From the IMG/VR virus record IMGVR_UViG_2831987924_000001: a stretch of 64,000 nucleotides of DNA. One strand, written 5' to 3'. This DNA comes from a virus. Taxonomy: Duplodnaviria > Caudoviricetes. The position numbers and the translations under genes are program-made. Under the pieces are notes generated by a model. It was not told the origin of the DNA, did not search any database, and was given only the letters and a program-made list of their open reading frames with translations. Below are positions 20,117 to 63,074 of this stretch, one piece after another. Each line of letters opens with the position of its first letter. Within the stretch, counting starts at the first letter, position 1.

Positions 20117-20400
20117 TACAAACAACTCCCCTCATAAAGTTTTTGAATAGCTTGCAACCCATATTGATTAATGTGAATGAGATGTTTTCTATTACCTGTA
20201 GCCACTTCAATAAAGTTCATTGCTTCCAGTCGGCAAATGATTTTTCTTAATGTTGGTTCGCTGAAATTTAGTTCTGATACGATTTCTTGTTTTGTTCGTC
20301 CACTGAAGCGTGTTGTTGCTTCTTTATTGATGAGATAGTTAAGCAATTCGATTTCCTCAAGCGTTAAACGTTCCACTAATGATGTGAAATGTTGTTCCAT
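20116..20400 (-). CDS. Winged-helix DNA-binding protein (TubR-like adaptor)
   Basis: KQEIVSELNFSEPTLRKIICRLEAMNFI...IHINQYG; translationally coupled to the tubZ-like gene. Confidence 0.7.
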   Translation of the reverse strand: MEQHFTSLVERLTLEEIELLNYLINKEATTRFSGRTKQEIVSELNFSEPTLRKIICRLEAMNFIEVATGNRKHLIHINQYGLQAIQKLYEGSCL

Positions 20401-27433: not shown

Positions 27434-28726
27434 ATGTTAATTACTAAAAATGTTAAAGTTAAATGGTGTAAACAAAATAGAGAACATTATGAAAAATTGG
27501 GTTATAAATTTACAAAATATCTGGATTCATTTGTAGTGAAAATTGAAGATTTAACTTCACAAAGCCATGTTGAAGTAGAAATGATTTGCGATAACTGTAA
27601 TAAAACAAAAATGACGCTTCCTTATAGAGAATATTTAAAAAGATATAAAGATAAAACTTATTTTTGTAACAATTGTAAAAAAGAAATTAAATTCAACGAT
27701 TTAAAACAAAGATTTGAAAATAAAGGATATATTTTAGTTTCAGATATATCTGAATATGAAAATGTATTTTCTTATGTTAATTATATTTGTAAAAAGCATA
27801 AAGAAAAGGGTGTTATGAAAATTTTAGTTAATTCATTTAATAATGGTTCAGGTTGTAAATATTGTGGAATTGAAAAGATGATAAATAAAAATAAAAAATC
27901 TTATGAAGAAGTAAAAGAGTTGTTTAAAAGTAAAAATCTAATTCTTTTAACAGATAATTATGAATCTGCTAATCAATTATTAAAATTTATTTGTGAAAAT
28001 CATAAAGATAAGGGCGTACAAAAAATTAGATATAGAGCTGTTGCAGACGGACAAGGTTGTAAATATTGTGGCTATGAAAGAATATCAAATAAAATGAAAC
28101 ATAATTACGATTTTGTAAAATCAGAGTTTGAAAAAAGAAATTATATTTTATTAGATAAGGAATATAGATGGACAAAAAATAAACTAAAATATATCTGTAA
28201 AAAACACCCAAATAAAATTCAAGAAATTGAATTTAGAGCGTTATATAATCAAAATCAAGGGTGTAAGTTCTGTGCTTTAGAAAAGGTTTCTGGCGAAAAT
28301 AGCGTACATTGGAAAGGCGGTATTTCTTCATTATCCGCATATTTAAGAACCTTTTTAAATGATTGGAAAATGGAATCTTTTAAAAAATGCGATTATAAAT
28401 GTGTTATAACTGGCAAGAAATCTAATGGTGATTTTGAAGTTCATCATCTACTATCAGTTGATTTAATTATACAAAAAATACTTTCTGAAATAAACATGGA
28501 ACTAAAACCAAAAATTTCAGATTACTCTAAAGATGAATTGAAAATATTGAAAAATTTATTTACAAAAGAAAACAATAAGTTGCATGGAGTAGTTTTAGAC
28601 CCGAAAATTCACCGTTTATACCACAAAATTTATGGATACGGTAACAATACACCTGAACAATTTGAAGAATTTAAAGAAAGATATAAAAATGGTGAATTTG
28701 ACGATTTGATTGGAGAAGCGGTTTGA
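27434..28726 (+). CDS. Free-standing HNH-type homing endonuclease with repeated C-x2-H...GC-x2-C modules
   Basis: Three ICxxH...GCKYC/GCKFC repeats, WKGG, CVITG..FEVHHL...HRLYHKIYG.GNNT. Confidence 0.75.
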   Translation: MLITKNVKVKWCKQNREHYEKLGYKFTKYLDSFVVKIEDLTSQSHVEVEMICDNCNKTKMTLPYREYLKRYKDKTYFCNNCKKEIKFNDLKQRFENKGYILVSDISEYENVFSYVNYICKKHKEKGVMKILVNSFNNGSGCKYCGIEKMINKNKKSYEEVKELFKSKNLILLTDNYESANQLLKFICENHKDKGVQKIRYRAVADGQGCKYCGYERISNKMKHNYDFVKSEFEKRNYILLDKEYRWTKNKLKYICKKHPNKIQEIEFRALYNQNQGCKFCALEKVSGENSVHWKGGISSLSAYLRTFLNDWKMESFKKCDYKCVITGKKSNGDFEVHHLLSVDLIIQKILSEINMELKPKISDYSKDELKILKNLFTKENNKLHGVVLDPKIHRLYHKIYGYGNNTPEQFEEFKERYKNGEFDDLIGEAV

Positions 28727-28777: not shown

Positions 28778-29617
28778 ATGTCACGTAAGAAACAAGAAAA
28801 GAAAAGATGTTTAAAATGTGAAAGAGAATTAGCTCCACTTAATTTTTATAGCGGTAATGAAATTATATTTCCTGATGGAAAAATACATTTATGTAAGAAT
28901 TGCTGCTCACAAATTATAGATCAACATGGTTTTGAAGGATTCAAAATGATACTTCGCATTATTGACAAACCATTTTTACAAGATGTTTATAATGATGATC
29001 CAAAGGCATACATAAGACAAGTAAATAGTTTACCTCAATATCGTAATATGACTTATGATGATAGCGATTTTGTAGGTAATACAGTTAATAACACTATTGA
29101 AATTAACAAAGAAAAAGAAAAATTTTTAAATATTGATGATGAGGTTCGGAAAAGATGGATAGGATTCACCTCTGAAGAAGATATTATGTTTTTAGAAAAT
29201 TTTTATCAAGAATTAATTGCGACCTATGAATCTAAAACTCCTATTCAAAGAAATTTATATAAAAATATAGCTGAAACACAATTATTAGCTAATAAGGCAA
29301 GAGAGCAAGGAAAAATTAAAGAATATCAAGATTTATTAAAAACCATGAGTACGCTAATGACAGATGCTAAAGTTAAACCGTTACAAGAAACTGGTGCAGA
29401 AGATGGTGGTTTATCTACTTGGGGACAATGGGTTAAAAAGATTGAAGAAACTGAACCCATTCCTGAAGCCGAAGGAGAATTTAAAGATCCTGATGGTATT
29501 ATGAAATATTTTCAGAAATTCTTTGTTAATCATTTTGCTAGAGTGTTTGGTTTGGAAGATAGAAACACCATCGAAAAAGATTTAGAAGATATGATGAAGG
29601 AAGATGGTGTTAGATAA
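28778..29617 (+). CDS. Putative terminase small subunit (SPbeta YonG-like)
   Basis: N-terminal CLKC/CKNC, IEETEPIPE motif; coupled to the large terminase. Confidence 0.6.
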   Translation: MSRKKQEKKRCLKCERELAPLNFYSGNEIIFPDGKIHLCKNCCSQIIDQHGFEGFKMILRIIDKPFLQDVYNDDPKAYIRQVNSLPQYRNMTYDDSDFVGNTVNNTIEINKEKEKFLNIDDEVRKRWIGFTSEEDIMFLENFYQELIATYESKTPIQRNLYKNIAETQLLANKAREQGKIKEYQDLLKTMSTLMTDAKVKPLQETGAEDGGLSTWGQWVKKIEETEPIPEAEGEFKDPDGIMKYFQKFFVNHFARVFGLEDRNTIEKDLEDMMKEDGVR

Positions 29618-31696
29618 TGGCAGGATATAAACATTTTCAAATAGATCGAAATAAATATAAAAATGGAATTATAGATATTTATAAAAAAGAAATTAATCCA
29701 AATAAAGTTGATGAAAATTTGAGTAAAAATGAACGTTTAAGAAATGGATTTAAAAAATGGAGTTCCTTTTTTCGAAGTAATCCTCATCGTTTTGCCGAAT
29801 CATATTTAGGGCTTAAACTTAAAACTTACCAAAAAATTCTATTATATTTAATGTTTCATGTTTCGGCGTTCATGTATTTTGCTGCAAGGGGTCAGGGCAA
29901 GAGTTACATAATTTCCATTTTCTGTATAATACGTTGTATACTATATCCCAACACAAAAATTGTGATTGCCTCTGGTAATTGTATTGCCGTCTAATGTGGA
30001 AACACATTAGATCATCAGCGCGGAAGAAAACAGGAAGGCTGAGATGCTAACCTGAGTGGAAGGCTAAGAGTAACATCTTAGTCACACGCAACGCATAGAC
30101 GGTGAAACTCCGATTAAGGAGAATATAATCCGTCCACGAGTCCGCGCCACCTAAGTCCTTTAAAGGATATGGTGAAAACGTATGCTGAACTAACGGGAAA
30201 TGAACCGTTAGAAGTACAGGATAAAAAGCCTGTACGGTAACATTTTGACAAAGGGGCAAGCCAAATTAATTATAACAGAAAAAATTCAAAAAGAATTAAT
30301 GCAATATCCTAATATAGCAAGAGAAATAAAAGAAATTAAAACAGGTAGCAACCAAGTAGTTGTAGTATTTCAAAATGGAAGCACAATTGAAGCCGTAGTT
30401 TCGAACGATAATGCACGAGGATACCGATGTCAAATTTTAGTGCTTGACGAATTTCGTATGATTAAAGAAGACGTTTATGAAAAAGTTTTAAAACACTTCT
30501 TAAACGTACAACGTCAACCTCCTTACCTTAATAATCCTAAATATGCTCATTTAAAAGAAGAAAACAAACAGATATTTATTTCTAGTGCTTGGTTTAAAAA
30601 TCATTGGAGCTATGAAAAATTTATTGATTATAGAAACGCCATGCTTAAAGGTAAAGATTATTTTGTTTGTGCTTTACCTTATACAGTATCTTTATATCAT
30701 GGATTATTAAGTAGAAAATTTGTTGAAGATGAACGTTCTCATGATAATTTTGACCCTATCGCATGGCAAATGGAAATGGAATGTTTGTTCTTTGGGGAAT
30801 CTGAAAAAGCATTTTTTAAATTTGAAGATTTACAAAAAAACAGAAGTTTAATTAAACCATTTTACCCTTTAACAAATGTAGAATATTTAGAAAATAAAGG
30901 TAAACGTAAAAAATCAACTAAAATGGAAGGCGAAATTCGTCTAATTGGTGTTGACGTTGCTATTATGGGCGGTAATGATAACGACAACACCATTTTTACT
31001 TGTATGAGATTATTACCTAATGGTGATTCATATATTAAACAAGTTCCTTATATTGAAAGTTTAAACGGTCAACACAGTGAGAAACAAGCCATAAGATTAA
31101 AACAATTATTTGAAGACTTTGAAGCAGATTATGTTGTAATGGATACATCAGGTAACGGTATATCTTTATATGATGATTGCGGTCGTATCCTTTATGATGA
31201 GGAAAGAGATATTGAATATCCTGCTTGGTGTGCATTTAATAACGATGAAATGAAAAATCGTGTTTTAGATAAAAATGCCTTGCCTGTCATCTATTCTTTA
31301 AAAGTCGTAAAACAAGAAGTAAACCATGATATTGCAATGTCTCTAAGAGCTGATTTAGAAAAAGGTCGGATTAAGTTACTCATTAATGAATTAGATGCAA
31401 AAGATTATTTAACTGAAAAACATGGATTTTTAAAGAAAACTCCAGAAGAACAAGCTATTCTATTAAATCCTTATATTCAAACAACAATTTTAATTAATGA
31501 GATGATTAACCTTGAATATGAAATTAGAAATGGATTTGTAAAATTAAGTGAAGTTGGCAAAAATAGGAAAGACCGTTACAGTAGTTTGGCTTATTGCAAT
31601 TACTATGCTCGTGAATTAGAAACGAAATTAAAAAAGAAAAAGAATGCAGTTGATCCAACTAAACTATTCCTATTCAAATCCCCTACCATAATGTAA
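29617..31696 (+). CDS. terL: Terminase large subunit; exons 29617-29976 and 30248-31696 (602 aa spliced)
   Basis: AARGQGKS Walker A, spliced junction KIVIASG|TKGQA, ARGYRCQILVLDEFR, IGVDVA, KDRYSS. Confidence 0.9.
29977..30247 (+). ncRNA. Group I intron (271 nt, no ORF) in terL
   Basis: 5' exon ends in U (GGU) and pairs with IGS UUGCC; P3 GCGCGGA/UCCGCGC; P7 GCAUA/UAUGC; terminal G; removal restores the frame. Confidence 0.9.
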
Positions 31697-41400: not shown

Positions 41401-42387
41401 GTGGTGATATTGTTGGAGAAAATTAAAGAAGTTACCACTGAAGAGTGGGAACAAGTAAATGAATTCAATAGACAAATTACTCAAGAATTTCTTGAGCAAC
41501 AACACCTTTCCCCTCAAACTCTTAAACAATATGAATCTGCTTTAAAAATTTTCTTTAGATGGGTAAAAGATTATTGCCAAAATAAACCTATTACTGAATT
41601 AAAACCTCGTGATGCTTTACGTTATCAAAACTATTTAATTAGTCGCAACCTATCTTCTAATGCAGTTAAATTTAAACGCTCTGCTGTTTCTTCTTTATGT
41701 GGTTATATTGAATTGTATTATGCTGATGAATATCCGTTGTTTAGAAATATTTATAATAAGAAAATTCCTAATCCAGCTAAATCATTAAGATATAATAAAG
41801 AACCATTAACTGAAGAAGAATTTAATATGTTAATTGAAGAATTAAAGAAACGTGAAGAGTGGCAAATGGTTGCTTATCTAATTTTTACATATACAACAGG
41901 CTGCCGTAGAGAAGAAAGTCGTCAATTACTAAAAGAAGTTGTGAATTATAGTAAAGTAAAAGATCCGAAAACTGGTGAAGAGAAAAATTATTATTTAACA
42001 CATGAGATTCGATGCAAAGGAAGAGGCAAAGATGGGAAGATTCGGCGTTTCCCATATGATGATTATACAATGGAAGCTTTGAAAAAATGGCTTGAAGTTC
42101 GTGGCGAAGATGATTGTCCTTATATGTTTGTGACTAAAACAAAAGATGGTAAAGTAAGACAAATTTCTGCTTCTACTTTTAATTACTGGTGTCAAGAAAT
42201 CTTTAGTGAGATTGTTGGTAAACGTGTCCACCCTCACCTACTCCGTTCAAGTCGTGCAACAAATTTGGCATTAGCCGAAAATAAGTCAATTGATGCTATC
42301 CAGAAATTGCTTGGACATGAATCTCCTGATACAACACAAATTTATATTGTTAAGAATAGTGATGATGAGATTGATGAAATTTTTTAG
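41401..42387 (+). CDS. Tyrosine recombinase (SPbeta YomM-like)
   Basis: Intact catalytic residues: TGCRREE, KGRG, HLLRSS, LLGH, TTQIY. Confidence 0.9.
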   Translation: MVILLEKIKEVTTEEWEQVNEFNRQITQEFLEQQHLSPQTLKQYESALKIFFRWVKDYCQNKPITELKPRDALRYQNYLISRNLSSNAVKFKRSAVSSLCGYIELYYADEYPLFRNIYNKKIPNPAKSLRYNKEPLTEEEFNMLIEELKKREEWQMVAYLIFTYTTGCRREESRQLLKEVVNYSKVKDPKTGEEKNYYLTHEIRCKGRGKDGKIRRFPYDDYTMEALKKWLEVRGEDDCPYMFVTKTKDGKVRQISASTFNYWCQEIFSEIVGKRVHPHLLRSSRATNLALAENKSIDAIQKLLGHESPDTTQIYIVKNSDDEIDEIF

Positions 42388-44228: not shown

Positions 44229-44364
44229 GGTGGTTTGGTATCTAGGCAGGTGAACTACGGACTGATCACCCGTAGTCGCGCAGCTCAACTCCCCTGCCTC
44301 ACCTGCCTAGTTTCTTTTTAATACATAATGGGAGTTGAAATAATGTGGATGGGAGTTGGATGAT

Positions 44365-45675
44365 GTGATTGTTCTTGATCAGAAAGTCAAGGTAAAATGG
44401 CATGGTAGTAATAAAAAACATTATGAATCTTTAGGGTATAAATTTACAAAAATTGGAGATGAATTTGAAGTAGATATTAAACATTTATCTTTAGGTTCTA
44501 ATGCTCTTGTTAAGTGTTATTGCGATTATTGTAATGAGCTTTTTAACAGAAAATATTGTCAGGTAAATGAATGTAAATTTCATTTTTGCAGTCAAAAATG
44601 TCAAGCATTATGGCAGTCTCAGTTTAGAGTCGGTGAAAAATCTTCAAATTATAAAAAAGATATACCTATTGAAGATAGAACAATTACATGTCAATGGTGC
44701 AGAAGAAAATTTACTGTTATGCCAAGTGAAATAAATAAAACTAAATTTTGTTCAAAAAAATGTAGGCAAGAATGGTATGCTAAAGTATGGTCGCAAAATC
44801 CTGAATGGAGAGAAAAAAGCAAACGCCGAGCTGTAAAAATTCTTTCTGAAGGCAAAATAGAAAAAGTTAATACAGAATGTCAAATAATTGTAAATAATTT
44901 GTTAGATGAATTAAATATAAAGTATATTAATGAATATAATTGTGAATATGTTACAATTGACAACTATTTACCAGATTATAATTTAATGATTGAAGTTATG
45001 GGTACTTATTGGCATGTAGACCCAAGATTCTATGAGAAGATTTATTATCAAATGCAATTTGACAGAATTATTCATGATAAAAGAAAAAATAGTATCATAA
45101 AAAGTTTGTATAATATAGATATATTATATTTATGGGAACATGATATATTGAGCAATAAGGAACTATGTAAAGAGTTAATAAAAATGTATATTAATAAAAA
45201 AGGGGAATTAGATGAATACAATTCATTTAATTATGAAATATTGGATGGTTGCTTAATTTTAACTAATAAATATAAGCCTTTTATAGTTTATGATATTGAA
45301 GAATTGCATAATTTATTTGAGTTAAAATCGGGAGAAAAGAAAAGTTTAAAACAAGAAGACAAGTGGATCAAATTTAATTGTGATTGTTGTGGTAAAGAAA
45401 CTGAACAATTAAAATCTAGATATAATAAAGCAAAACATCATTTTTGTAGTCAAAAATGTAAAAAGATTTTTCAACAAAAAGGAAATAATAAAACTTTAGG
45501 TGTTGAAGTTAAATGTGACTATTGCGGAAAACCAAAAATAGTGACTAATTATCAATATAATGATTATCTTGCTGGTAAAAAGAAAAATTTCTTTTGTAAC
45601 TATGAATGTTTTAATAAATGGAAAAAGGTAAATTTTAAAGGTGAAAATAACCCGAATTATAAAGGTAGAAAATAA
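44365..45675 (+). CDS. Free-standing endonuclease, Vsr/DUF559-like PD-(D/E)XK core flanked by CxxC...FCSxxC zinc repeats
   Basis: IDNYLPDYNLMIEVMGTYWH..., LYLWEHDI; GTG start chosen from the GGGAG SD at 44351. Confidence 0.75.
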   Translation: MIVLDQKVKVKWHGSNKKHYESLGYKFTKIGDEFEVDIKHLSLGSNALVKCYCDYCNELFNRKYCQVNECKFHFCSQKCQALWQSQFRVGEKSSNYKKDIPIEDRTITCQWCRRKFTVMPSEINKTKFCSKKCRQEWYAKVWSQNPEWREKSKRRAVKILSEGKIEKVNTECQIIVNNLLDELNIKYINEYNCEYVTIDNYLPDYNLMIEVMGTYWHVDPRFYEKIYYQMQFDRIIHDKRKNSIIKSLYNIDILYLWEHDILSNKELCKELIKMYINKKGELDEYNSFNYEILDGCLILTNKYKPFIVYDIEELHNLFELKSGEKKSLKQEDKWIKFNCDCCGKETEQLKSRYNKAKHHFCSQKCKKIFQQKGNNKTLGVEVKCDYCGKPKIVTNYQYNDYLAGKKKNFFCNYECFNKWKKVNFKGENNPNYKGRK

Positions 45676-46070: not shown

Positions 46071-46253
46071 ATGCGTGAGAAGGAGGAAAAGGAAATGTTA
46101 GCTACTTCTAAAAAATACAAAAGACCAAAAATTGCACATAATAAATTTGCCAATATGAGTAAAAAAGACTGGAAGGAAGCTAATGAACAAAGTAAAAAAA
46201 CACGTGGAGTTTCAAGACTTACTTATGAAGATATTTTTGGTTGTCGGGGGTAA
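46071..46253 (+). CDS. Putative antitoxin upstream of the PemK-like gene
   Basis: Small ORF overlapping the toxin start, TGnTATAAT promoter. Confidence 0.55.
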   Translation: MREKEEKEMLATSKKYKRPKIAHNKFANMSKKDWKEANEQSKKTRGVSRLTYEDIFGCRG

Positions 46254-46855
46254 TTTGTTTGGTGTCGTTTATCTCTAAAGAAAACTGGTTAAATATTTAT
46301 AGAGGACATGAATATGAAGCTGCCCTACCCTATCCATCTGATACAAAAAGACCTCTTTCGTTTTTTATTCCAGATGATAATGATCCAGAAAGAGGTCGAA
46401 TCGTAGAATCCAATGGGAATTTTAAACCGATTTATATTAATGGTAAACCAATAGCTAAAGAACAGAAAATTATTATGACAGTTAAACCAAGAAAAGTTGT
46501 TGTATTAACTAATGATGAAATTAATCAAAATGAATATTTTGAATATATTTTAGTCGCCCCTATTAATACAATTAAACCAAATGAAAAACATAAAGAATGG
46601 TATCATAAATTAATAAATGATGAACATCCGATTTTTACATATATACCCAAAGGTAAATTAGAAAGATATGTAGATTTAAGTCAGACAATGAGTATACACA
46701 AAAGTTTACTTTTACGTAAGAGTGACCATATCCCTGAAGATCGCATGAAAGTAATTGATGATAACTTAGTACAATGTTTAGCACTAGGGATAATAAATGA
46801 TGATGACATTGAAGAAACTATATATTTGGAAAATATAGAAAAACAAAATAAATAA
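46241..46855 (+). CDS. PemK/MazF-family putative toxin (extended)
   Basis: KPRKVVVLTND..N, ILVAPINT, YVDLSQTMSIHKSLL. Confidence 0.7.
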   Translation: MSGVICLVSFISKENWLNIYRGHEYEAALPYPSDTKRPLSFFIPDDNDPERGRIVESNGNFKPIYINGKPIAKEQKIIMTVKPRKVVVLTNDEINQNEYFEYILVAPINTIKPNEKHKEWYHKLINDEHPIFTYIPKGKLERYVDLSQTMSIHKSLLLRKSDHIPEDRMKVIDDNLVQCLALGIINDDDIEETIYLENIEKQNK

Positions 46856-46957
46856 TTTTGTATCCAGTCGTCACAAAGACGGCTTTTATTTTTGTCATCC
46901 CTCCCCTACCCTTCTTTTGATGAATATGTTATAATAATGTAAATATTACCAAAAGAG

Positions 46958-47191
46958 GTGAAGGGTGTGAATAAGAAAGAACAAATTAAACTTCAAATAA
47001 AAGCCTATTTGTTTTTTATCGTTGTGGGATTACTTATATTTTTCATATTTATTAAACCGATTATTGGTGGTTTGGTAAATGATTATAAACATGATCGAGA
47101 AATAATTACGAATCGTGAATGGAAAGAGTTTCAAGAGTGGGAACAAAAACAGGAACAAAAAGAATGGGAAAATCAAGAAGTTAATCATTAA
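46958..47191 (+). CDS. Small single-TM membrane protein (moron-like)
   Basis: Own TGnTATAAT promoter and terminator. Confidence 0.6.
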   Translation: MKGVNKKEQIKLQIKAYLFFIVVGLLIFFIFIKPIIGGLVNDYKHDREIITNREWKEFQEWEQKQEQKEWENQEVNH

Positions 47192-47248
47192 TTAACCACT
47201 AACAAATGTCGTTAGTGGTTTTATTTTTTTGTAAAGGATGGTGGTGAT

Positions 47249-50200
47249 ATGCCTAATAATGATTCTCTAAAAATACTGATAACCGCACAATTAGATGAAA
47301 ATGCTTCTAAAGATACTATTCAAAAACAACTTAATACAATTCAAAGTAAATTAAATCTAACAATAGGAATAGATGCTCAACAAATTAGCCAAATTGCTAA
47401 TCAAGTTAAACAGTTACAAGCACAATTTGAAAGACAATCAAAAGGAATAAAAATTATTGATGATGAGAATGTAATATCAAGTATAAATCAAATTAAAAAA
47501 GGAATGCCTGAAATATATACTTCTATAGATAAAGCACTTGAAAAATATAAACAGTTTGGTCAAGTTAAAATTGAAAAATCATTTGATCCTGTAACAAGAG
47601 AATTAAATGGCTTTACATTGCAATTGCAAAAGGCTCAAGGACTTATTGAACGCATTAAATTTGATTTAGTGCAATTAAAAATGCCAGATGGTACTCAAAA
47701 TGTATTCCAAGTTACAAATAGAAAGATTACTGATGATACAGAAAAAATTAGAGAAAAGCAATTACAACTAGAACAAAAAGTTGATACTCAAATACAAAAA
47801 CAAAATGAAAAATTACAACAGCAATTAGAACTTTTTAAACGTCAAGCAGAAATTAATGCAAAAAACCTACAAAGACGATATGGTGATGCAGTCGACACTA
47901 ATGCATTGAATAATTATTTAGCAAGTGTAAGAAGTTTAAGTGCTTCTACTCCAGATGTAAAACGAAAAATGGATGAACTTAATATGACATTCAAAGAGAT
48001 TTCTGCGAATGTCAAATCATCCTCTTCACATGTTTTAGATTTCGGGGAAGCTTTAAAAACAGCAATGGTAAATTTTGCCGTCTAGTATAGAAATATACTA
48101 GATTATTATCGCGGTATCAAGCGGGGAGGCTGAGATGCTAACCCGAACCGAAGGCTAGGTTTAAAAGCCTAGTCAGGGGCAGAGCATACGGACTGAACCT
48201 GCGAAAGCAGAATATAATGTCCGCACGAGACCGCGACACCCTAACACATTATGGTGAGGGTGAAAATGTATGCCGAGCTTGTGCGAATATGAAGCACAAG
48301 AACTATCGGATAAAAAGCCGATAGGGTAACATAACTGAAAATTCCCCGTCTGGCTAATTAGTGGTACGGCGATTGTGCAATCAATTAATTTCTTTCAAAA
48401 AGGTATTGAGTATGTGAATGAATTGAACAAGGCTCTCACAGAAATAGCAATTGTTACGGGACAAACACAACAAGAAGTTGCAAAATTGGGTGAAGAATAT
48501 AATAAACTTGCTTATCAAATGGGAGTCACTACTAACGAAGTAGCTCGTGCAAGTGTCGAATTCTTGCGTCAAGGTCTATCTCAAGAAGAAACAATGAAAC
48601 GTGTTCAAGTTGCTACAGAATATGCAAAAATTTCATCATTAGATTTTAATAAAGCAGCAGAAATTTTAACAGCTACAACAAATTCAATGAATGTAGATAT
48701 TGAACGTGCAGCAGACGTGTTTTCAGCATTGGGAGATGCGACAGCAACTGGTGCAGATGAGATTGGGATAGCTTTTCAGCGCGTTGGCGGATCGGCATCA
48801 GCTCTGAATTTGGAATTCGAAAAGGTGGCTAGCTGGATTGCAGTACTATCGTCAAGAACTCGTGAGGGTGCTGCTACTGTCGGTAAATGAGTTGCCGCCT
48901 AGCATAGTAATATGCTAGTGAAAATCTCCTCTAATTGACTTGGAAGCCCTAACAGATAATGCTGAGGGTGACAAGGCGCAAGCAGGCTGTGTGCCGTGCA
49001 GCGTGAACGACTGAACGAGGAGACTACCCTTTTGGGTAGAAGCGACAGTCTGAACTCTATGGAAACATAGAGAGTAAGGTTGAAGTGCCTTACCGCCATG
49101 TTAATACATGGTCAGTAGCCCTTTATTCGGGTGAAAGTAACAGAATGAACAGTATCAAAAGCATTCTTGCGAGAATCCAAAACCTAAAAGAAACAGGTTT
49201 TGATGAGACAGATGGTACACAGATAAACGAGGTTGCAAAAGCATTAGCTACAGTTGGCATACAATTAGTAGATGCAAATGGTCAATTTAGAAATTTTGGT
49301 CAAGTAATGGATGAGATTGGAAATAAATGGAAGAACCTAGATAGCAGGACTAAGGCTTATCTCGCAACTACCATCGCCGGGACGTATCAGCAATCTCGAT
49401 AAATAGATGTCGAGACTAAATCCCTTCTGATTAATTGGGGAAGTCCTAACGTAAAGCCGAGGATCACCCACAACAAGCAAGGTCTAATGACCTGTGCAGT
49501 TGCAACGACTGAGCGAAGGGACATCCTTATACAGAGGATGAAGCGACAGTCTGAACTCTACAGAAATGTAGAGAGAGAAGGTCGAGTGTAAAGACACTCT
49601 TGGAAGTACCTTCTCCGCCATACCTATTATCAATAGGTATGGTCAGTAGCCATTGACTGTTTTTCAATGGTGAAAGTAACAGTATGTTCTAAACCTTATG
49701 GAAGGTTATGCTGATACGATTCCACTATACGAACAAGCTTTACAATCGGCTGGCACAACACAACAAAAATTTAATACATATTTAGAATCAAATGAAGCAG
49801 CGTTAAATAGACTTAAAGCTTCGTGGGAAGGTTTATGGCAATCAAGTTTTGATTCTGAAGCAATTAGAGCAGGAATTAATATTTTAGATGGATTTGTAAA
49901 AGTTTTAAAAGCAGTAATTGACAATATCGGACTATTCCCTACCGTTATTGGTATTGCTACAGCTTCGTATTTGGCTCTTAATAATACAACCAGACAATCA
50001 ATAATGCAACAAGGTTTGCTGTCTGCAAGCTTAGTAAAAGCTGGAGACTCAATGAAAATTGCTTCAGGTGCAGCTAGAGCATATCAAATATCATTATATA
50101 ATCTTACTTTAGCTGCCAGAGGTGCTGGCGCAGCTTTAACAGTTGCAGGAACAGCTATAAGAAGTATTGGCACTTTCTTAGGAACTATTGCTCTCCCTAC

Positions 50201-53200
50201 CGCCGCATTCATGGCTCTTGGCTGGGCAATCGGTAAAGTTACAGAGAAAATTATCGAATATAAAGAACACCAAAAACAAATCAAACAAGAAGCCCAACAA
50301 CTCGCCAACACTTACGCAACAAATAAAGAAAAAATCCAAAGCCTTGCTGACCAATATGAACGTTTATCTAATGAAGTTCAAAAAGGTTTACGTCCTAAAG
50401 ACGATGAAGAATATTTAAAAGTACAACAAGAACTTTATAATTTGATCCCGACAGTCGCGTCATACGTTGATCAGAAGGGTCAAGCGCATTTACGCAGTGC
50501 AGAGGCTGTTCGCAAAGAGATTGACAGCATTAAGGAGTTATCTAAACTTGAAAGTAATAAATTCATTGACAATTTTTCTAACAATATTGACAAAATAAAA
50601 AATAAAATTGATAACCTACAAAATCAAATTAACAACATTAAAAACCCTGTTTTCGATGGCGGATTTACTATTCCTAATTACCAACCAACTTCAGAAGAAC
50701 AAATTGAAATTGCCATTAAGCAACGTGAAATTAACGCTGCTATTGAACAAGCAATCGGTTTATATAAACAATATGCTGATGCTTATGCGGATACTCTTGG
50801 TGTTAAAAAACAACTAAATGAAGAAGATAAAAAATATATAGAAACTATCATTGAAGAAAATCGCGCAAAATTATTAACGGCAAAAGGTCAAGAAGAAGTA
50901 ACTAAAAAGATTAAAGATTATATTGGCGAAGTTGGCAACGCACGTAAAGCAGTTGGTGATTTATTTACAGGCGAAGAAATTAGAAACTTTACAGATAAAC
51001 AAAAAGGTGTCATTGAATCTATTTCCAAATCTTTAAAAAACAGTTATACTGATTGGGAGCAATATAAAAAAGTATTGGAGCAAGTAGGATTTAGTTCTGA
51101 TCAAGTTGATAAAATTATTAACCGTCTAACAGGAACTACAAATCAACAAACAAACGCCAATATAAAAGCTGCCAATTCATTTGAAATATTAGCAGGTAAA
51201 ATTGATGAAAGTGGCAAAGCAACAGAACGTAAATTATCTGTATCTGAAAAACTGTTAGGTATTTCTAATTCTGAAATTGATGCGGCTTTTCAAGCTATCT
51301 CTACTTATCAACTTCTAAGCAATCAAGAAAATCTCAACACCCAACAATCCCTTATGCTTGCAGACGCTAAAGAATATCTTGCTAACCTCTATCCTCACCT
51401 AGTCGAAGGTACAGAATTAAACATCGCAGCAATGAGAAGAGAAGCAGAACAAAATCAAATCCTACTCAAAGCTATTGATGCACTCAAAGATGGTCATTTA
51501 ACAGCAGAGCAACAAATGACATTAGCAACAGCTCTCAATGCAAAATCTCGTTTACAAATTCTCATGCAACAAGCAGCAGTATATGAACAAGCAGCGCAAA
51601 ATTTTGCAAAAATGTCTGACGGTACAGACGAAAATGCAATTCAGGCTGAAAAATTCTATCGCAGAGCACAACAAAGTCAAGCAAGTTTAAAACAAGAAAT
51701 TGAAGCCATCATGCCTGACATGGATAAATGGATTCAACAATTAGCTGATGCAACAAATTATCAAGGACAAATATATCAAGCAGATGAAGAAGCAAAGAAA
51801 AAGAATAAAAAATCTACTGAAGAGTCTATTTATGTCACAGATAAATATAAACAAGCACTATCTAAACTTAATGCTGAAATTCAGAAATTGCAAACACTTC
51901 AATCAAAATACCCTAAACAATCAGAAAGTTATCGAAATGCTTTAAAACAAGAAATTACCCTTTTACAACAAAAGAAACAATTAATGCAAGAGCAAGCGAA
52001 ATCGCTTGAACAACAAATTAAGTCAGGTAAAATACAGCAAACAGGGATAATAAGTACAAAATCAACTAGTGTCAGTGGAAATAGTAAAGAAGCTATTATT
52101 TGGAACTTTTTTAAATCAAAAGGATTTTCTGATAGTGTTGTAGCTGGAATCCTCGGAAATCTAAAACATGAATCCGGATTAAGTACCACAATTGTTAATC
52201 CTACAAGTGGTGCAACAGGATTGGCACAATGGCTCGGTAGTCGTTTAACAGGTCTTAAAAATTATGCTGCTTCATTGGGAAAAAGCTGGACTGATTTAAA
52301 TGTACAACTTGATTACATGTGGAAAGAATTAAATTCCACAGACAAGAAAACGTTAAATTGGTTATTAAGCAATCAAGATGCAATTCCTTCCACAGTAGCA
52401 ACCATGTTTGAAAAATTATATGATCGCGCTGGCGGTGCTGGTTTAAGTAGTCGTATTTCCTACGCTAATCAATATTATCAAAAATTTGCAAACGGCAATG
52501 TATCTGGTGATGTATCTAAACAAATTGCAGAACAACAACAATCTATTGACCAAGCCAAAGAAGATTTAAATAGTTTGAAAGCAGAAATTAGCGATTTAGA
52601 TGCTCAAATTGCTGAACGATATATGGAAATCCATCGTTCCAAAATTGCTGAATTTGACTTAGCGCGTGAAAGAATACGTAATCATCAAGAATTGTATGAA
52701 TTAGAAAAACAATCTCTTGATGAAAATTCTAAAGCATATCGTCAACGCATTCAAAATCAAATTATTTTAGAACAAAAAACAAATAAGGCATTACAAACAG
52801 AGATTAAGTGGGCAGAAAATCAGATTAAAAATGATAAGAAGATTAGTGCATCTCATAAGGAAGAACTTCGTCAGTTTATTGCTGAACGTCAAAAAATGTT
52901 GAAAGAATCTAATCAGAAAATTGTTGAATGGCAAGAAGAAATCATAATAAGCTCTCTTCATGAGATGTATGAGCAAATAGATAAAGCATTTAATGCAATG
53001 GAAGATCGTGTAAGTCGTCTTCAACATCAGTTAAAAATGTTGGGTGATGTAGAATTTCATCCTTTTAAAATTGATATTATGACCGATGAAATTGATGCAT
53101 TAATCCAAGAACGTGAACAAACACGAAAAGATTTAAATAGATTAAAACAAGAACAAAAGAAACTAAAGAAAGATAGTAAACCTTATAAAGAAAATTTAGC

Positions 53201-54686
53201 AAAAATTGCAGAATTAGAAAAAAGATTAATGACCGTTGATGAAAATATAGTCCAAGCTGACGCAGACTTAAAAGATTATTATACTAGAGTTGCAGAACAA
53301 GTAATCGAAGCACAAAAAAAATATTATGAAGAAAAGAAACAAGCTGCTTTAAGTTCCCTTGATGCAGAGAGACAAGCAATTGAATCAACTTACGAAGCTC
53401 AAATGAAAGCAATTGAAGAAGCTCATGACGCTAAAATGAAAGCAATTGATGAAGAACTTAGAGCATTAGAAAAATTAAAAGATGAAGAAGATTATAATAA
53501 GCAATTAGATAAGTTAAACAAAGAAAGACAAGAGATTTTAAATAAAATTAATAAATTGGCACTAGATGATAGTCAAGAAGCGAATGCAAAACGTATAGAA
53601 TTGCAAAAACAATTAGCTGAAAAAGAAGATGAAATTAATGAGTTTAAACATAACCGAGAATATGAATTAAGACGACAAAATCTTGAAGATTTAAGAGAAA
53701 AGCTAAATGAAGAATACGAAAACGAAAGAGAAACACGAGAAAAGTCTTATGAAGACCTTACAGAAAATTTGGATAAGAGAAGAGAAGAAATCGAAAAGTA
53801 TTACGATGACATAATTAATGATACTCGAAGATGGGATAATGTTACTCAGCAAATATTGAGTGGGCAATTTAATAATTTACGCACAGAGTTAAACAATATT
53901 CAAGTTGATATAGATAAAACAATGAATTCAGCAAGTAGTTATGTTTATGAATTAGTTAAAGCGTTAGAAGATGCTCAAAAAGCAATGGCTTCTTTAGGAA
54001 ATGGTACTACAACCAATTACAATGAAACACATAAACAAATTAATGAAACATTAGATGATCCTGTTTATTGGGACGGTGCAGAACTAAAAGACGGACAAAT
54101 TGGTAGAATTAAAATTCTTAAACCAATCAATTTGTGGAAACGTGATGCACAAGGAAAATTACAATTTGTCCGTGTTTTAAAACCGGGAGAAGTATTTCGA
54201 GTATATGGATATGATGAAAAATACGGTGGTCAATACAATGTAGGTTCAGGATATTGGATTACCAATATGAAGGGATATGTTCAATACGAAACACCATCTA
54301 AAGAAAAATTACGTGAAGCACAAATGTTTGATACAGGTGGATACACGGGTGAAGATGAAGGATTAGCTTATTTACATAAAAAAGAAATAGTATTAAATGA
54401 AACAGACACTAAAAATTTCTTAGATACAGTCAAAGAATTGCGTTCATTTGACTCAATGCAAATTTTAGACTCACTCAAAGCAGCAACAATGAGTTTTATG
54501 CGTATTCCAAAAATACAATTACCTAATCTTTCCCCTGCTCTTGCAGGCGGTGGAACAATTCAAATTGATAATTTAATTCACATTGATAAAGTGGAAAAAG
54601 ATGCAAATATCAATATTGAAAAATTAGCAGACCAAGCAATTGATCGTTTAATAACTAAATTAAAACCGTATGGATTTTTTAAATAA
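47249..54686 (+). CDS. Tape measure protein; four exons 47249-48069, 48338-48884, 49148-49400, 49687-54686 (2206 aa spliced)
   Basis: Spliced junctions give TAMV-KFPVW, ATVG-NSIKSILAR and QQSRF-LNLM; TP901-type TMP core, phage tail lysozyme domain, coiled coils, C-terminal FDTGGYTG. Confidence 0.9.
48070..48337 (+). ncRNA. Group I intron 1 of the tape measure gene (268 nt)
   Basis: GGU|AA pairs with IGS UUGCC; P3 UCGCGGU/ACCGCGA; P7 GCAUA/UAUGC; terminal G; clearly homologous to the terL intron. Confidence 0.9.
48885..49147 (+). ncRNA. Group I intron 2 of the tape measure gene (263 nt)
   Basis: CGGU|AA pairs with UUGCCG; R element AACGACUGA, S element AAGCGACAGUCU; terminal G. Confidence 0.9.
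49401..49686 (+). ncRNA. Group I intron 3 of the tape measure gene (286 nt)
   Basis: UCUCGAU| pairs with IGS GUCGAGA; AACGACUGA / AAGCGACAGUCU; terminal G. Confidence 0.9.
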
Positions 54687-59089: not shown

Positions 59090-60835
59090 ATGTCTTTTGG
59101 TGATATTTATCGTGATCCTTTGATATATCAATGGTATGATACACGATTTCAATATACTGAAACTATTAGAGTTGTTGGTGGTAAAGCATTATTGACATAT
59201 GTTCCTGATGAGTTTCAAAGAGTAACTATTATAGGTAAATATGAAACTGTTAATACACCTCAAAATTCAAATGAATATAAAGTAAATTATCAAACAGGTT
59301 TTATTGAGTTTCATACTTCCGTTGCAGATAATACTGCATTAACAGCTACCTATTATGCAAGAGGTATTATTAAACACCCTGCTGCAAGAACAATGATTTT
59401 AGATAATGGAAATTTAATTACTGCTGATAATGTTGAAGATGCTTTACAAGAAATTGTGACAAAAATTAATTCAAATAACTCTAGAATCACTCAAATTGAA
59501 CAAAACGCAATCAACCGTCACAACTCACATGTCAACTCATCAACCGCACACGCAGCCGAAAATATCACGTTTTCTTCATCGCAAGTGACAGGTGTAAGCA
59601 ATGTTAAGTCAGCGATTGAAAAAGTCGATACACGCATCAACAATATTGTTGGTCAAGCAGGGCAATCAAATACTGAAATAGTTGACGCTCGACTTGGTGT
59701 TGATGGCACAGCGCATCCAACACTCAAAAGCCGACTAGACAAAATGGAAAACGAACAAGTGAAATCAAATCAACAAACTACTACCCTTACGCATGGTTTA
59801 AACATCATCAACGCTAGTCAAAACTCACCATTAGACGTGCGGATTGAGGGGCGGACGTTGGTGAACTTGCTTGGTCAGGCTGGGGACTGTGAAGACGTAA
59901 GTAAATGGTCGGAATACCAAACGACACGTACAACAGATTCCAGCAATTTCGTTTATAGTACGTCGGGAATGAAAGTAACAATAAAGAGTGGTTTTTATAT
60001 CGGTTCAACTTTTCACACAATTCTAGGAGGTTTGAAAGCAAACAAATATTACATTCTGATTGGAGAGGTCAAGAATGGGAACGCTTCAAAGGGAGTTAAG
60101 ATTGGTTTTGGTGGAAGTGGATCTGATCTCGGGACTTCTGCTGTTATTGATGATACGTCCAAGTTCAACACTGTATGGGTAAAAGCAAATCCAAAAATAG
60201 ATAAAGTAGTCGTAAATGTAGATTTGATTGTTGATGGCAATGAAGGGCAATACGGTTACTTTGACGGTATCCGCCTCTACGAAATCACAGCCGAAGAATA
60301 CGCCAACATCGGCACGGTATGGAACGATGAAGAAGTAGCAAGACGTTATCCGTACGTTGATTCTGTTCAACACGTTCAAAATCCGTATGTGATTGCGGAA
60401 GGCGAGAACTTGTTACCGCCGTTTACGGAGTGGACGTTACATGCGAATGCAATAGTGAAAAGTCCGTATGAGTTGGAGTTGAATGCGACAGAGGGGTATC
60501 AAGATTCATATGTTTTGATTCCTGTAATTAAAAATCAAACATATACAATATCGCAGGAAGGCACTGGGAGAATTTATATTGCAACATACGACCGAATAAA
60601 TGGCACTCTCGTCAGCACGAAAGTTGATACAACGAACAAAACAGCAACATTTACGATTACGGAATCAAATGTTAGTTATATAAAGGTCGTATTTAGTTGC
60701 ACAACTAGTGGTACATTCTCCTTTATCAATCCAATGCTTACACTCGGAAGCCAGCCGAAACCATTCGTACCACGCAATCCAAGTATGCTCCTAATTTCTG
60801 GTGGAACTAAAACTATTGCGGGTGTTCGCTTATGA
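59090..60835 (+). CDS. Tail fibre/receptor-binding protein, N-terminal part
   Basis: EIVDARLG...TLKSRLD, IEGRTLVNLLG, YPYVDSVQH, carbohydrate-binding-like modules. Confidence 0.75.
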   Translation: MSFGDIYRDPLIYQWYDTRFQYTETIRVVGGKALLTYVPDEFQRVTIIGKYETVNTPQNSNEYKVNYQTGFIEFHTSVADNTALTATYYARGIIKHPAARTMILDNGNLITADNVEDALQEIVTKINSNNSRITQIEQNAINRHNSHVNSSTAHAAENITFSSSQVTGVSNVKSAIEKVDTRINNIVGQAGQSNTEIVDARLGVDGTAHPTLKSRLDKMENEQVKSNQQTTTLTHGLNIINASQNSPLDVRIEGRTLVNLLGQAGDCEDVSKWSEYQTTRTTDSSNFVYSTSGMKVTIKSGFYIGSTFHTILGGLKANKYYILIGEVKNGNASKGVKIGFGGSGSDLGTSAVIDDTSKFNTVWVKANPKIDKVVVNVDLIVDGNEGQYGYFDGIRLYEITAEEYANIGTVWNDEEVARRYPYVDSVQHVQNPYVIAEGENLLPPFTEWTLHANAIVKSPYELELNATEGYQDSYVLIPVIKNQTYTISQEGTGRIYIATYDRINGTLVSTKVDTTNKTATFTITESNVSYIKVVFSCTTSGTFSFINPMLTLGSQPKPFVPRNPSMLLISGGTKTIAGVRL

Positions 60836-61977
60836 TTGCAAGTGAACACCTTTTTAATTTAGAAGAATTTAAGAAAGATTATTTTAATCTAAAAAGAACA
60901 GATATTTTAAATAAATATAATTTAAATGATACGAAATATTATAAATTAGTAAAAGAGTTGAATTTACCAAGTAAAAATCCAATGTTAGAAACAATGTTAA
61001 GTCAAGATGAATTAGATCAAGTAATTAAAATGTTTAAAGAAGGTAAAAGCTTAAATGAAATAGGAAGAAAATTTGGTGTAGCAGGAGCAACAATAAAGAA
61101 ATATTTAAAGAAGCAAGGCTATGAATACAAAGCTAAAGAAACAAATTCATTTGATGAATTTTTATCTAAATATTCCTCCATGTTTGTGTATGATTATTTT
61201 TCAAATAGATTAACAAATCAAGAAATAATGGAAAAGTATAAAATTACTGAGTGGATATTTAGAAGAATGATTGATTATTATAAATTATCAAAAAAGAAAT
61301 TAAAAATAGAGGAAATTTTAACAGATGAACAACAATCAAATTTAATTAATGATATAAAAAGTGGAATGTATATAAGTCAATTAGCAAAGAAATATAATGT
61401 ATCTAAAGATATGATAAAAAGATTTGCTGAAAGCCATCAGTTACAACTTAATCATTTTGATAGAAAATACGACATTAACATTGAAGAAATAGTTGATGAT
61501 TATGTAAATAAAAATATGTTTTTAAGTGAAATAGCTGAAAAATATGGATGCTGTGCAATGGTTATAAAAGATAGACTTATTAAACATGGTATTGAAATAA
61601 GAGATAATAGTGAAAATATCGAATTGTTAATTCAGAAAGGAAAATTTCATTCTGGATATAAAGGAAAACAAATACCCTACAAGCAATATATGCTACGTTC
61701 AGAATGGGAGCTAGATGTAGCAAAATTCTTAGATAAATATAATTATAAATGGTCTTATGAAACGCAAACATTTAAGTTGGGTGAATTTAGATATACGCCC
61801 GACTTTTTTATTTATGATGAAAATGGAAATTTACAATTTATTTTAGAAGTCAAAGGCTGGCTTAAAGAAAAGGATATTAGAAAGTTTCAGTTAATGGAAA
61901 CTCTTTATCCAGAAATTGAACTGATTTTAGTTGATAGAGAACTTTATTATTACATTAAGAAAGAGGTGTCTTATTAA
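60832..61977 (+). CDS. Endonuclease: tandem HTH repeats plus C-terminal PD-(D/E)XK domain
   Basis: LRSEWE...WSYETQTF...YTPDFF...LEVKGW; AT-rich; overlaps both neighbours. Confidence 0.75.
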   Translation: MIASEHLFNLEEFKKDYFNLKRTDILNKYNLNDTKYYKLVKELNLPSKNPMLETMLSQDELDQVIKMFKEGKSLNEIGRKFGVAGATIKKYLKKQGYEYKAKETNSFDEFLSKYSSMFVYDYFSNRLTNQEIMEKYKITEWIFRRMIDYYKLSKKKLKIEEILTDEQQSNLINDIKSGMYISQLAKKYNVSKDMIKRFAESHQLQLNHFDRKYDINIEEIVDDYVNKNMFLSEIAEKYGCCAMVIKDRLIKHGIEIRDNSENIELLIQKGKFHSGYKGKQIPYKQYMLRSEWELDVAKFLDKYNYKWSYETQTFKLGEFRYTPDFFIYDENGNLQFILEVKGWLKEKDIRKFQLMETLYPEIELILVDRELYYYIKKEVSY

Positions 61978-63074
61978 TGCCTTTAGTTTGGAGTCAACAT
62001 TCTACTGGAACTGGCTATAAAGTTGTAAAGGCATATTTACAATATGACACAGTAGACGGTAGCGCAATTGTAAGAAAGGGAGATGGAACTAAATTAACAA
62101 AAGTTTCATCTCCATCTTCTTTTACGGGGATTGATCAACAATGTTTGCAGCAAGATTATTTATATGTTTCAATACCTGATACTGTTACTGATTTTCAATC
62201 TTATTTTTCAACTAATGTTTATACAGTTGATTATGATGTGAACGACAGATTTAAATTAGGTGCGATTGGTGATAAAAAAGATATTTTATGGAAAGATGGA
62301 CAGGATTGGAAGGTTTTGAAGTGGGTTGAGAAATCTGAAACATTAACAATTACTAATAATACTGCTACACTAGCGAATAATGCTCAAGCGGATACAGCTA
62401 TTATTGTTGATGAGTCAACAGGGGAAATTTACAAACGTGTTGTTGCCTTGAGTGGAAGTGGCAAGGAATTTACACAAGGTGGAAGTGGGAATAAAACCAT
62501 TACGTTCAATGAGGGTTATGTTCCTACTTCTCCGAAAGCTCACTATGTCCTTGCAACACCGCAAACGATTGTTGTAACGGATAAAGTCGAAGGCGATTTG
62601 GTTGTCAACGGGCAGACACAGATTGAGGTTGGTTCGGGAGTTGTGATTAGAGAAAAAGTAATACCTTATCTTGACGCTAACAATATTTATCGAATCAATA
62701 ATCATTGGGGAGGTAATAGTGATTTAAAATATAAAACAACAAAGATATTAAAAATTTATAAATCAAGTATTGATAACACAAGCGTATGGACAATAATAAA
62801 TGATAACGATAATGGATATGCAAACGGAAACGCTTGGGCTTGTACTCAAAAAACAAATTTCGACCAAGCAGCCGAATATACTGTCACATACTTGCTACTA
62901 GACCGTCATCTATTCACAGCCAACATTCTTGCGGTTACAGCAACCTATGATTCTTCATTGAAGTCGGTTGTGGATTCGGTGGTAGCGAAGCAAAGTGATA
63001 TTGCTGCAACTGTTTCTGTCAACGTAAGAGCGATTGCTGAACTTTATAAACGTGTGAAGGCGTTAGGCGGATAA
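61977..63074 (+). CDS. Tail fibre protein, C-terminal part
   Basis: KLGAIGDKKDIL, YVLATPQT, IEVGSGVVIREK; continues the upstream fibre style. Confidence 0.7.
   Translation: MPLVWSQHSTGTGYKVVKAYLQYDTVDGSAIVRKGDGTKLTKVSSPSSFTGIDQQCLQQDYLYVSIPDTVTDFQSYFSTNVYTVDYDVNDRFKLGAIGDKKDILWKDGQDWKVLKWVEKSETLTITNNTATLANNAQADTAIIVDESTGEIYKRVVALSGSGKEFTQGGSGNKTITFNEGYVPTSPKAHYVLATPQTIVVTDKVEGDLVVNGQTQIEVGSGVVIREKVIPYLDANNIYRINNHWGGNSDLKYKTTKILKIYKSSIDNTSVWTIINDNDNGYANGNAWACTQKTNFDQAAEYTVTYLLLDRHLFTANILAVTATYDSSLKSVVDSVVAKQSDIAATVSVNVRAIAELYKRVKALGG

Follow-up and report, generated by a model that had tools for sequence, protein, structure and literature searches.

Three predicted self-splicing-type group I introns split the tape measure gene of an SPbeta-like prophage

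The window analyzed here is a stretch of 64,000 nucleotides from a virus of the Caudoviricetes (IMG/VR record IMGVR_UViG_2831987924_000001), and its tape measure protein (TMP) gene lies on the plus strand in four pieces. Exon 1 (47249..48069, 821 nt) matches phrog_4211 (tail length tape measure protein) and corresponds to residues 322–429 of the TMP of Psychrobacillus phage Perkons. Exon 2 (48338..48884, 547 nt) matches TIGR01760 tape_meas_TP901 with 69.9 bits and positions 5–132 of the PF10145 profile, and is 69% identical to Perkons TMP. Exon 3 (49148..49400, 253 nt) continues the PF10145 match at profile positions 137–201 and reaches up to Perkons residue 690, and exon 4 (49687..54686, 5000 nt) resumes from residue 692; the latter matches phrog_4211 with an E value of 8.7e-154 and includes a tail lysozyme domain (PF18013 Phage_lysozyme2). 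Removal of the three intervening segments joins the exons into a single open frame of 6621 nt, that is, 2207 codons with one terminal stop, encoding 2206 residues with neither a frameshift nor an internal stop. A previous sequence-only reading had proposed introns of 268, 263, and 286 nt at this locus, separating exons that sum to 2207 codons; its coordinates and lengths proved exact.

We compared the joined product with the uninterrupted TMP of Perkons. The alignment has no gap at junction residues 274, 456/457, and 541, and 346 of 587 positions are identical over residues 170–750. Together with the rejoining of PF10145 across exons 2 and 3, this bears out the restoration of TMP-like motifs that had been claimed for the joined exons. 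Left unjoined, the gene consists of ORFs of 278, 171, 105, and 1662 aa, the first of which (47249..48085) extends 16 nt inside intron 1; it would thus be annotated as four fragments though it codes for one 2206-residue protein. The G+C content is 0.46, 0.46, and 0.43 in introns 1, 2, and 3 vs 0.28–0.40 in the exons and 0.317 in the whole window. The TMP gene of this SPbeta-like prophage is confirmed as split in four by three small group I introns of the self-splicing type.

All three introns lie on the plus strand and carry the expected boundary signals. The base preceding each is T and the final base of each is G, and a P1 helix with a U.G pair at the splice site can be drawn as fully paired, judged by complementarity only, over 4–7 bp. 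P1 is ATGGT/GCCGT in intron 1 (48070..48337, 268 nt), which belongs to what we call family A; CGGT/GCCG in intron 2 (48885..49147, 263 nt) and TCTCGAT/GTCGAGA (7 bp) in intron 3 (49401..49686, 286 nt), both of family B. The first in-frame stops end at intron nucleotides 16, 6, and 2, corresponding to codons 6, 2, and 1 past the junction, and in intron 3 a TAA is created across the exon/intron junction itself. The U.G pair, the terminal G, and a stop within six codons of each 5' end, all of which the sequence-only reading had listed, were found in all three. No plus-strand ORF of at least 40 aa lies wholly within any intron, and hence none holds an internal homing endonuclease gene. On the minus strand, we noted only short ORFs within the introns, the longest of which (66 aa, 48899..49099) lies over the ribozyme core. 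Other types of insert were considered and rejected: an intein because of the in-frame stops, a programmed frameshift because the inserts are 263–286 nt long, and a group II intron on account of size and core.

A fourth intron, likewise anticipated as an additional splicing event, interrupts the large terminase gene (terL) on the same strand. Exon 1 of terL (29617..29976, 120 codons) matches positions 9–123 of phrog_15503, and exon 2 (30248..31696) takes up the profile at 124–243, so that the match is continuous over the junction, before matching phrog_26582. Exon 2 is 47% identical to yonF of SPBc2, annotated as 'terminase family protein'. The 271-nt intron between them (29977..30247) is of family A; its P1 (TGGT/GCCG) is again fully paired with the U.G at the splice site, its last base is G, and its stop ends at intron nucleotide 18. 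Locus L042 has a near-identical intron at the same terL site. Intron 1 and the terL intron are 72–73% identical and introns 2 and 3 are 63% identical; the members of each pair are paralogues.

Next, we investigated whether the predicted secondary structures are conserved among homologues. A pattern scan for family B returned 120 matches, mostly an unrelated coding gene; the 35 with ACGACTGA upstream were kept, and of these, the 16 that were compact, differed from one another, and showed the 5' strand of P3 were aligned. The corresponding scan for family A returned 44 matches, about 10 of which were judged to be homologues and eight were aligned. Covariation was run on MAFFT alignments unfitted to structure, namely A2 (family B, 18 sequences, with intron 3 as a row) and A3 (family A, 10 sequences, with the terL intron as a row). 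As the structures were worked out manually on the introns of the window itself, they have an advantage over slid controls on the share of cells paired: 91.0% vs 35–44% for family B, and 89.8% vs 33–42% for family A. Both sides change in 30 of 40 pairs (family B) and in 49 of 70 pairs (family A), and in neither family did any of 500 shuffles reach the covariation score. Since covariation lies far above both the shuffled and the slid controls, the pattern is beyond chance.

At the level of single helices, P3 of family B is paired in 100% of cells with five of its seven pairs covarying, P8 in 95.7%, and P6 in 96.3%; the invariance of P7 reflects the search pattern used to gather the homologues, which contained it. 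In family A, P3 is paired in 84.3% of cells, P8 in 90%, and P7, P9, and P9.1 in 100% each. Since the homologues of family A are not flanked by homologous exons, P1 of this family is paired in only 40% of their cells. Both families have a P3–P9 core with a P3/P7 pseudoknot, in which P8 is nested between P3' and P7'. In family A, represented here by intron 1 and the terL intron, two further helices (P7.1 and P7.2) follow P7 and precede the 3' strand of P3; all five pairs of P7.1 (helix 9) change on both sides, with 93.9% of cells paired, and P7.2 (helix 10) is paired in 89.7%. We take this architecture to be subgroup IA-like (the label being that of Michel and Westhof, 1990). Collectively, covariation strongly supports a predicted group I core with a P3/P7 pseudoknot in both families, in agreement with the recognizable core described earlier.

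Searches with the Rfam model RF00028 (Intron_gpI) recovered family B. Intron 2 matched at 48875–49072 (40.3 bits, E = 3.8e-9) and intron 3 at 49391–49573 (34.5 bits, E = 2.1e-7), each over the whole model, and the model alignment gives the same P1 for both. The two scores are under the gathering cut-off of 50 bits, which is a curated cut-off rather than a biological criterion. By contrast, a search over 301 nt with the threshold relaxed to E ≤ 10 gave no RF00028 match for intron 1, and the genome-wide RF00028 matches did not include the terL intron. Introns 2 and 3 were found by this model only in short-range and genome searches: Intron_gpI was not matched in the whole window at the gathering threshold, nor in 46900–50200 at E ≤ 10, and a control on three phage loci returned nothing, though one of them has Intron_gpI annotated in Clostridium phage phiCD211. 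Because the short-range and genome searches recovered introns 2 and 3, we attribute the earlier large-range blanks to search filters; and because those searches missed introns 2 and 3 as well as the Intron_gpI of phiCD211, blanks with RF00028 are weak evidence.

We then compared the locus with that of relatives, using contigs from sequencing runs, material from which splicing cannot be read. Intron 2 is exactly absent (net –263 nt) in contigs from all four runs compared, and one contig from run X1 lacks intron 1 just as exactly (net –268 nt). One contig of 2055 nt has introns 1 and 3 but not intron 2. Run X1 also contains a joint from 49315 to 49690 in a 270-nt contig, which amounts to a net loss of 286 nt if 88 letters lie between its sides, and which could be an allele without intron 3. 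In the RNA library X17, a joint at the intron 1 site (net –268 nt, with 32 diverged letters between) could be either spliced RNA or an allele without intron 1. As near-relative contigs lack intron 1 or intron 2 exactly, the introns are, on sequence grounds, evidently dispensable.

Further afield, the distribution is equally patchy. Perkons and five IMG/VR homologues (L005–L009) have a TMP gene without introns; L010, L011, L183, and L184 are interrupted at other positions of the gene; and L058 and L143 have a homologous intron at the same site as intron 2. There are at least six distinct insertion positions in this TMP lineage, at about residues 274, 407–412, 426–448, 456, 534, and 541. A pattern search of genome contigs confirmed six loci of 70 pattern matches. 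In the phage collection, a search with exon 2 found three records, with Perkons alone close, and a search with intron 3 alone found two weak records. Homologues of both intron families occur in other phage genes, and some follow endonuclease ORFs, as in the split RecD-like helicase of Bacillus phage PJN02. Patchy distribution combined with varied sites is the pattern of selfish, dispensable elements.

This distribution bears on the proposal, made in the sequence-only reading, that stacked splicing gates morphogenesis. According to it, four late-gene introns would splice slowly or conditionally and so tie virion assembly to temperature, Mg2+, or GTP. Production of two essential late proteins does require four splicing events, and every intron blocks translation within six codons so that unspliced RNA would give no product; early in-frame stops are, however, described as a general feature of such introns in the excerpts of PMC2504315. 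Relatives at 90–97% identity carry only some of the introns, the intron-less genes of Perkons and L005–L009 do without any, and L010, L011, L183, and L184 are interrupted elsewhere. Moreover, the capsid and tail introns of cluster J mycobacteriophages are reported to be efficiently spliced (excerpts of PMC3706429), and we saw no condition-sensing element in the introns. Hence, while the three tandem ORF-less introns and the terL intron stood up, the functional part of that reading found no support, and we regard gating as very improbable. It is just as doubtful that the combined splicing of the four introns is rate-limiting and sensitive to GTP, Mg2+, temperature, and translation load; if it were, full-length terminase and TMP, and hence infectious particles, would be made only in hosts able to support a burst.

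We also considered that the prophage is cryptic, that its inserts no longer splice, and that the TMP gene is a pseudogene in pieces. The element does sit in a bacterial chromosome (genome G000, contig C5), exon 2 found no close copy (E ≤ 1e-20) in the 47 other genomes searched from the host's family, and expression data for the locus were not found in the sequencing-run search, where the best share of sampled words was 0.25 and no run reached half. Against such decay stand the intact frame over 6621 nt of exons and the intactness of all helices in four introns with each P1 fitting its own exons. In addition, one run from a soil metagenome contains a near-identical stretch including intron 3, with 5 differences over 556 nt. 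The prophage may be defective; decay of the kind described is in our view very unlikely.

Less remote, though still unlikely, is that the introns are mobile in trans. A free-standing homing-endonuclease-like ORF (44356..45675, plus strand; phrog_12131 homing endonuclease and phrog_1271 HNH endonuclease) lies 1.6 kb upstream of the TMP gene, and over 79 residues its N-terminus shares 42% identity with an ORF upstream of terL (27434..28726). The products of these two related genes might cut intron-less alleles in a form of collaborative homing, for which psbA of cyanophage S-PM2 is said to be a precedent. Compared with alleles without intron 2, the opening six codons of exon 3 have 7 of 18 bases changed yet specify the same residues (our own translation), reminiscent of a co-conversion tract or an altered cleavage site. 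In Perkons, whose TMP gene has no introns, no ORF of this kind lies upstream of that gene. Nevertheless, distances of 0.9 and 1.6 kb separate the two ORFs from the genes, and the intron sites lie over 2 kb away from them; in addition, according to the excerpts of PMC3706429, such phages commonly have free-standing endonuclease genes whether or not introns are present.

Comparable arrangements exist in other phages. In phiCD211 (LN681537.2), Intron_gpI is annotated between 'Minor tail protein' and 'Tail tape measure protein', and a stretch like intron 1 (H13, 73.7% over 133 nt) lies directly before it, in the TMP region as here. By our own sequence reading of the boundaries, an exon of about 33 nt separates the two. 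That phage has two introns rather than three, the second of another type and the upstream one unannotated in the record. Gene orf142 of Staphylococcus phage Twort reportedly contains three group I introns, whose splicing is said to have been shown experimentally by Landthaler and Shub in 1999. Twort thus resembles the present case in having three group I introns in one phage gene, although gene and phage type differ and the introns described here are known from sequence alone.

According to excerpts of Pope et al. (2013; PMC3706429), cluster J mycobacteriophages, which are likewise large temperate siphophages with many free-standing HNH genes, have introns in virion structural genes (capsid and tail), including one ORF-less intron of 265 bp in a tail gene that was found, as here, by comparison with intron-less relatives. 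These phages differ from the present one in that each such gene has a single intron, the host is high-GC, and RT-PCR has confirmed splicing. For Lactobacillus phage LL-H, too, the large terminase gene is on record as containing a group I intron (Mikkonen and Alatossava, 1995, as cited in excerpts of PMC4299906); LL-H is an unrelated phage, and the parallel with terL is by description.

The closest parallel is in Bacillus cereus-group prophages, where excerpts of Tourasse and Kolsto (2008; PMC2504315) describe the group I introns TMP-IVS1, IVS2, and IVS3a/b in TMP genes; the E33L prophage additionally has term-IVS1, in its terminase gene. By description, those introns share several features with ours: they are small, they lie in the conserved part of the TMP gene at several sites per gene, and similar ones recur at different sites; most of them lack a complete endonuclease gene, they are inserted in frame and bring stops at or close to their 5' end, and the prophage also has a terminase intron. 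In the same excerpts, E33L, KBAB4, AH820, and G9842 have two introns per TMP gene vs three here, in lambda01-like rather than SPbeta-like phages. As far as that source goes, TMP introns are already in print for Bacillus prophages, and the present case is well supported as a further example and not a new regulatory device.

Taken together, we consider it very probable that the TMP gene carries three ORF-less group I introns and terL a fourth; most likely they are remnants of homing elements that have lost their endonuclease genes. By the standard mechanism of the class, each would fold after transcription into the P3–P9 core with its P3/P7 pseudoknot, free guanosine would attack directly 3' of the exon U paired to G in P1, and the freed exon end would then attack after the terminal G to ligate the exons. 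Because each intron stops translation within six codons, only fully spliced mRNA would yield the 2206-residue TMP; self-splicing in vivo, and its efficiency, we infer. As remnants, the introns would target the most conserved stretch of the TMP gene and be carried passively.

The finding opens no new question. It does suggest that, since one of the two intron families here (family A) is invisible to the standard Rfam model, counts of phage introns based on that model are too low. Group I introns are known to insert into the conserved core of TMP genes, and this locus contributes an example with three.

The tape measure gene (TMP; 47249-54686, + strand) is broken into four ORFs of 278, 171, 105 and 1662 aa. 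Joining the exons 47249-48069, 48338-48884, 49148-49400 and 49687-54686 gave 6621 nt in which the sole stop codon was the terminal one. A tblastn search with the uninterrupted tape measure protein of Psychrobacillus phage Perkons, the closest relative of the joined product, recovered the four pieces in the right order and in the expected frames. By blastp, 346 of 587 residues were identical between the joined product and the Perkons protein over residues 170-750, and the alignment was gap-free at the junction residues 274, 456/457 and 541. Whole-protein identity was 37%, hence the introns lie where the gene is best conserved. Exon 2 matched Pfam PF10145 at profile positions 5-132 and exon 3 at 137-201, and exon 2 was also matched by TIGR01760 (tape_meas_TP901).

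The three inserts, intron 1 (48070-48337, 268 nt), intron 2 (48885-49147, 263 nt) and intron 3 (49401-49686, 286 nt), have a G+C content of 43-46% vs 28-40% in the exons. Each is preceded by a T, ends in a G, and allows a P1 helix of 4-7 bp that is paired throughout and has a U.G at the splice site; the stop codon that each brings ends at intron nucleotide 16, 6 or 2, respectively. The numbers of the sequence-only reading for these introns and exons were all correct. The terminase large subunit gene (terL) carries an insert with the same features, placed by reading the sequence at 29977-30247 (271 nt): positions 9-123 of phrog_15503 correspond to ORF 29617..29994, and positions 124-243 to the start of ORF 30245..31696.

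The window falls within contig C5 of a complete bacterial genome of 3.73 Mb. Starting ~21 kb in, the late genes of a large, temperate siphophage form a + strand block that encodes a sigma factor, PhoH, head protease, portal, structural proteins, integrase, tape measure, Dit, tail proteins and holin. Since the gene preceding the portal gene shares 47% identity with SPBc2 yonF ('terminase family protein') and the TMP is closest to that of Perkons, the element is, by gene similarity, an SPbeta-like prophage. Its tyrosine integrase gene (41401-42387) sits amid the structural genes, an arrangement as in Perkons. Products of the minus strand, on which the intervals 18995-20125 and 12990-15119 lie, include proteins of tubulin/FtsZ-like and FtsK/SpoIIIE type and a RecD2-like helicase. 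ORF 46241-46855, in the position expected of a tail chaperone directly 5' of the TMP gene, carries a PemK/MazF-like toxin domain (residues 82-178; PF02452, E 8.8e-8) and gave no PHROG match. A lone 30-nt CRISPR repeat (2481-2510 (-), Rfam CRISPR-DR2, 42.6 bits) sits between two minus-strand prophage genes; it is one base off 19 repeats in the host's own arrays (contigs C4 and C5) and 2-3 bases off seven further host repeats. Solitary phage-borne repeats acting as RNA anti-CRISPRs are an idea from the literature, and this mimic of host repeats could act in that way.

Initial Rfam searches over large ranges matched none of the inserts; a control locus from a phage, where Intron_gpI is annotated, was likewise blank, hence this result was not trusted. 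Searching the whole genome with RF00028 recovered introns 2 and 3, and short-range cmscan placed them at 48875-49072 (40.3 bits, E 3.8e-9) and 49391-49573 (34.5 bits, E 2.1e-7). Both matches spanned model positions 1-253, with scores below the gathering score of 50, and the P1, P3, P4-P6, P7, P8 and P9 helices of RF00028 coincided with those drawn by hand. Intron 1 gave no RF00028 match in a short-range search. RF00028 also matched, at 105.9 bits (E 2.4e-28), a fifth group I intron that lies outside the window, ~48 kb before its start (C5 1377774-1378121 (-); positions 1501-1848 of locus L187). The gene it interrupts is DNA polymerase III alpha-like, with PHP and DNA_pol3_alpha 3-99 on one side and 174-259 and the finger domain on the other, and the intron is probably part of the same prophage.

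The four introns in the window belong to two families. Family A comprises intron 1 and the terL intron (72-73% identity) and family B introns 2 and 3 (63%); identity across families is 53-57%. BLAST of the host genome found copies of both families limited to these four introns. Homologues were gathered from IMG/VR by two short conserved patterns. For family B, 120 pattern matches were obtained, 35 of them also with the P7 5' motif, and 16 non-identical compact homologues were aligned by MAFFT with introns 2 and 3; for family A, eight homologues were aligned with intron 1 and the terL intron. Standard pairs filled 91.0% of 700 cells of the hand-drawn family B core (35-44% with slid partners) and 89.8% of 677 cells in family A (33-42%), although taking the structures from the window's own sequences favours both counts over the slid controls. 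Two-sided changes occurred in 30 of 40 pairs in family B and 49 of 70 in family A, and in neither family did any of 500 shuffles reach the observed covariation score. In family B, all P3 cells were paired (100%) and five P3 pairs covaried; its P7 was invariant, which is uninformative because the collection pattern contains P7. The family A P1 was paired in just 40% of cells, since the other loci are flanked by non-homologous exons. Family A also has two helices, P7.1 and P7.2, that follow P7 and precede the 3' strand of P3, and we take these to mark subgroup IA. The 15-nt motif that family A has in its P5 loop recurs in introns of two IMG/VR loci (L027 and L051) with an otherwise family B-type core, and is therefore a module common to both families.

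Next, contigs of relatives (~90-97% identity) were compared over 47249-50200. At the intron 2 site, each of four sequencing runs gave a contig that passes from 48886 to 49166 through 16 other letters and is 263 nt shorter on balance, the length of the intron; by our translation, this stretch codes for the six residues that open exon 3 but differs at seven bases. A contig of run X1 joins 48063 to 48338 with six letters between, a net loss of 268 nt that equals intron 1, and by our reading keeps the frame. A 2055-nt contig of run X2 retains introns 1 and 3, with intron 2 absent. Because their exons differ, these contigs represent DNA-level alleles, not spliced RNA. Homologous genes at seven loci (L005-L009, L181 and L182) are uninterrupted; those at L010, L011, L183 and L184 are interrupted elsewhere, at about residues 407-412, 426-448 and 534, some by inserts of 1.4-1.6 kb. 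A family B intron occupies the intron 2 site also in L058 and L143, and L042 has the terL intron at the identical terL site.

None of the three tape measure introns contains an endonuclease-sized ORF. Two endonuclease-like genes, related to each other, lie upstream of terL and the tape measure gene respectively, and might as free-standing genes mobilize the introns in trans, which we consider improbable. Bacillus phage PJN02 has a split helicase gene in which family A relatives follow endonuclease ORFs. A tail-region gene (59090-63074) matching phrog_13022 (933 profile positions) is also in two pieces, ORF 59090..60835 (profile 13-471) and ORF 61977..63074 (653-822). Between them, ORF 60832..61977 is HNH/HTH endonuclease-like and overlaps its neighbors at start and stop; the three ORFs are in three different frames, and a free-standing endonuclease gene, rather than an intron or intein, seems to have split the gene.

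Late transcripts would most likely undergo standard group I self-splicing, with the early stops releasing ribosomes ahead of the catalytic core, a role that is established for such introns. The same early-stop pattern occurs in the introns described by Tourasse and Kolsto (PMC2504315), who report that B. cereus-group prophage TMP genes have group I introns at three sites, similar introns lie at different sites, endonuclease genes are lost, and a terminase intron occurs within the same prophage. TMP introns at several sites plus a terminase intron are found there as in the window. In phiCD211 (L004, LN681537.2; locus 1857-2430), an annotated Intron_gpI (locus 2152-2417) precedes the TMP gene, and an unannotated stretch just upstream (2001-2132) resembles intron 1; we read it as a putative second intron ending near 2129, with an exon of ~33 nt between the two. 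In the cluster J mycobacteriophages, introns in capsid and tail genes are spliced (PMC3706429). Among the papers listed by literature searches on tape measure group I introns and three-intron phage genes, none was on a three-intron tape measure gene.

Collectively, the three-intron tape measure gene is real, well supported and ordinary. The proposal that splicing gates morphogenesis found no support, the introns being variable among close relatives. Because they come and go in this manner and occupy at least six positions in one gene lineage, the introns behave as selfish elements, dispensable and mobile in origin.
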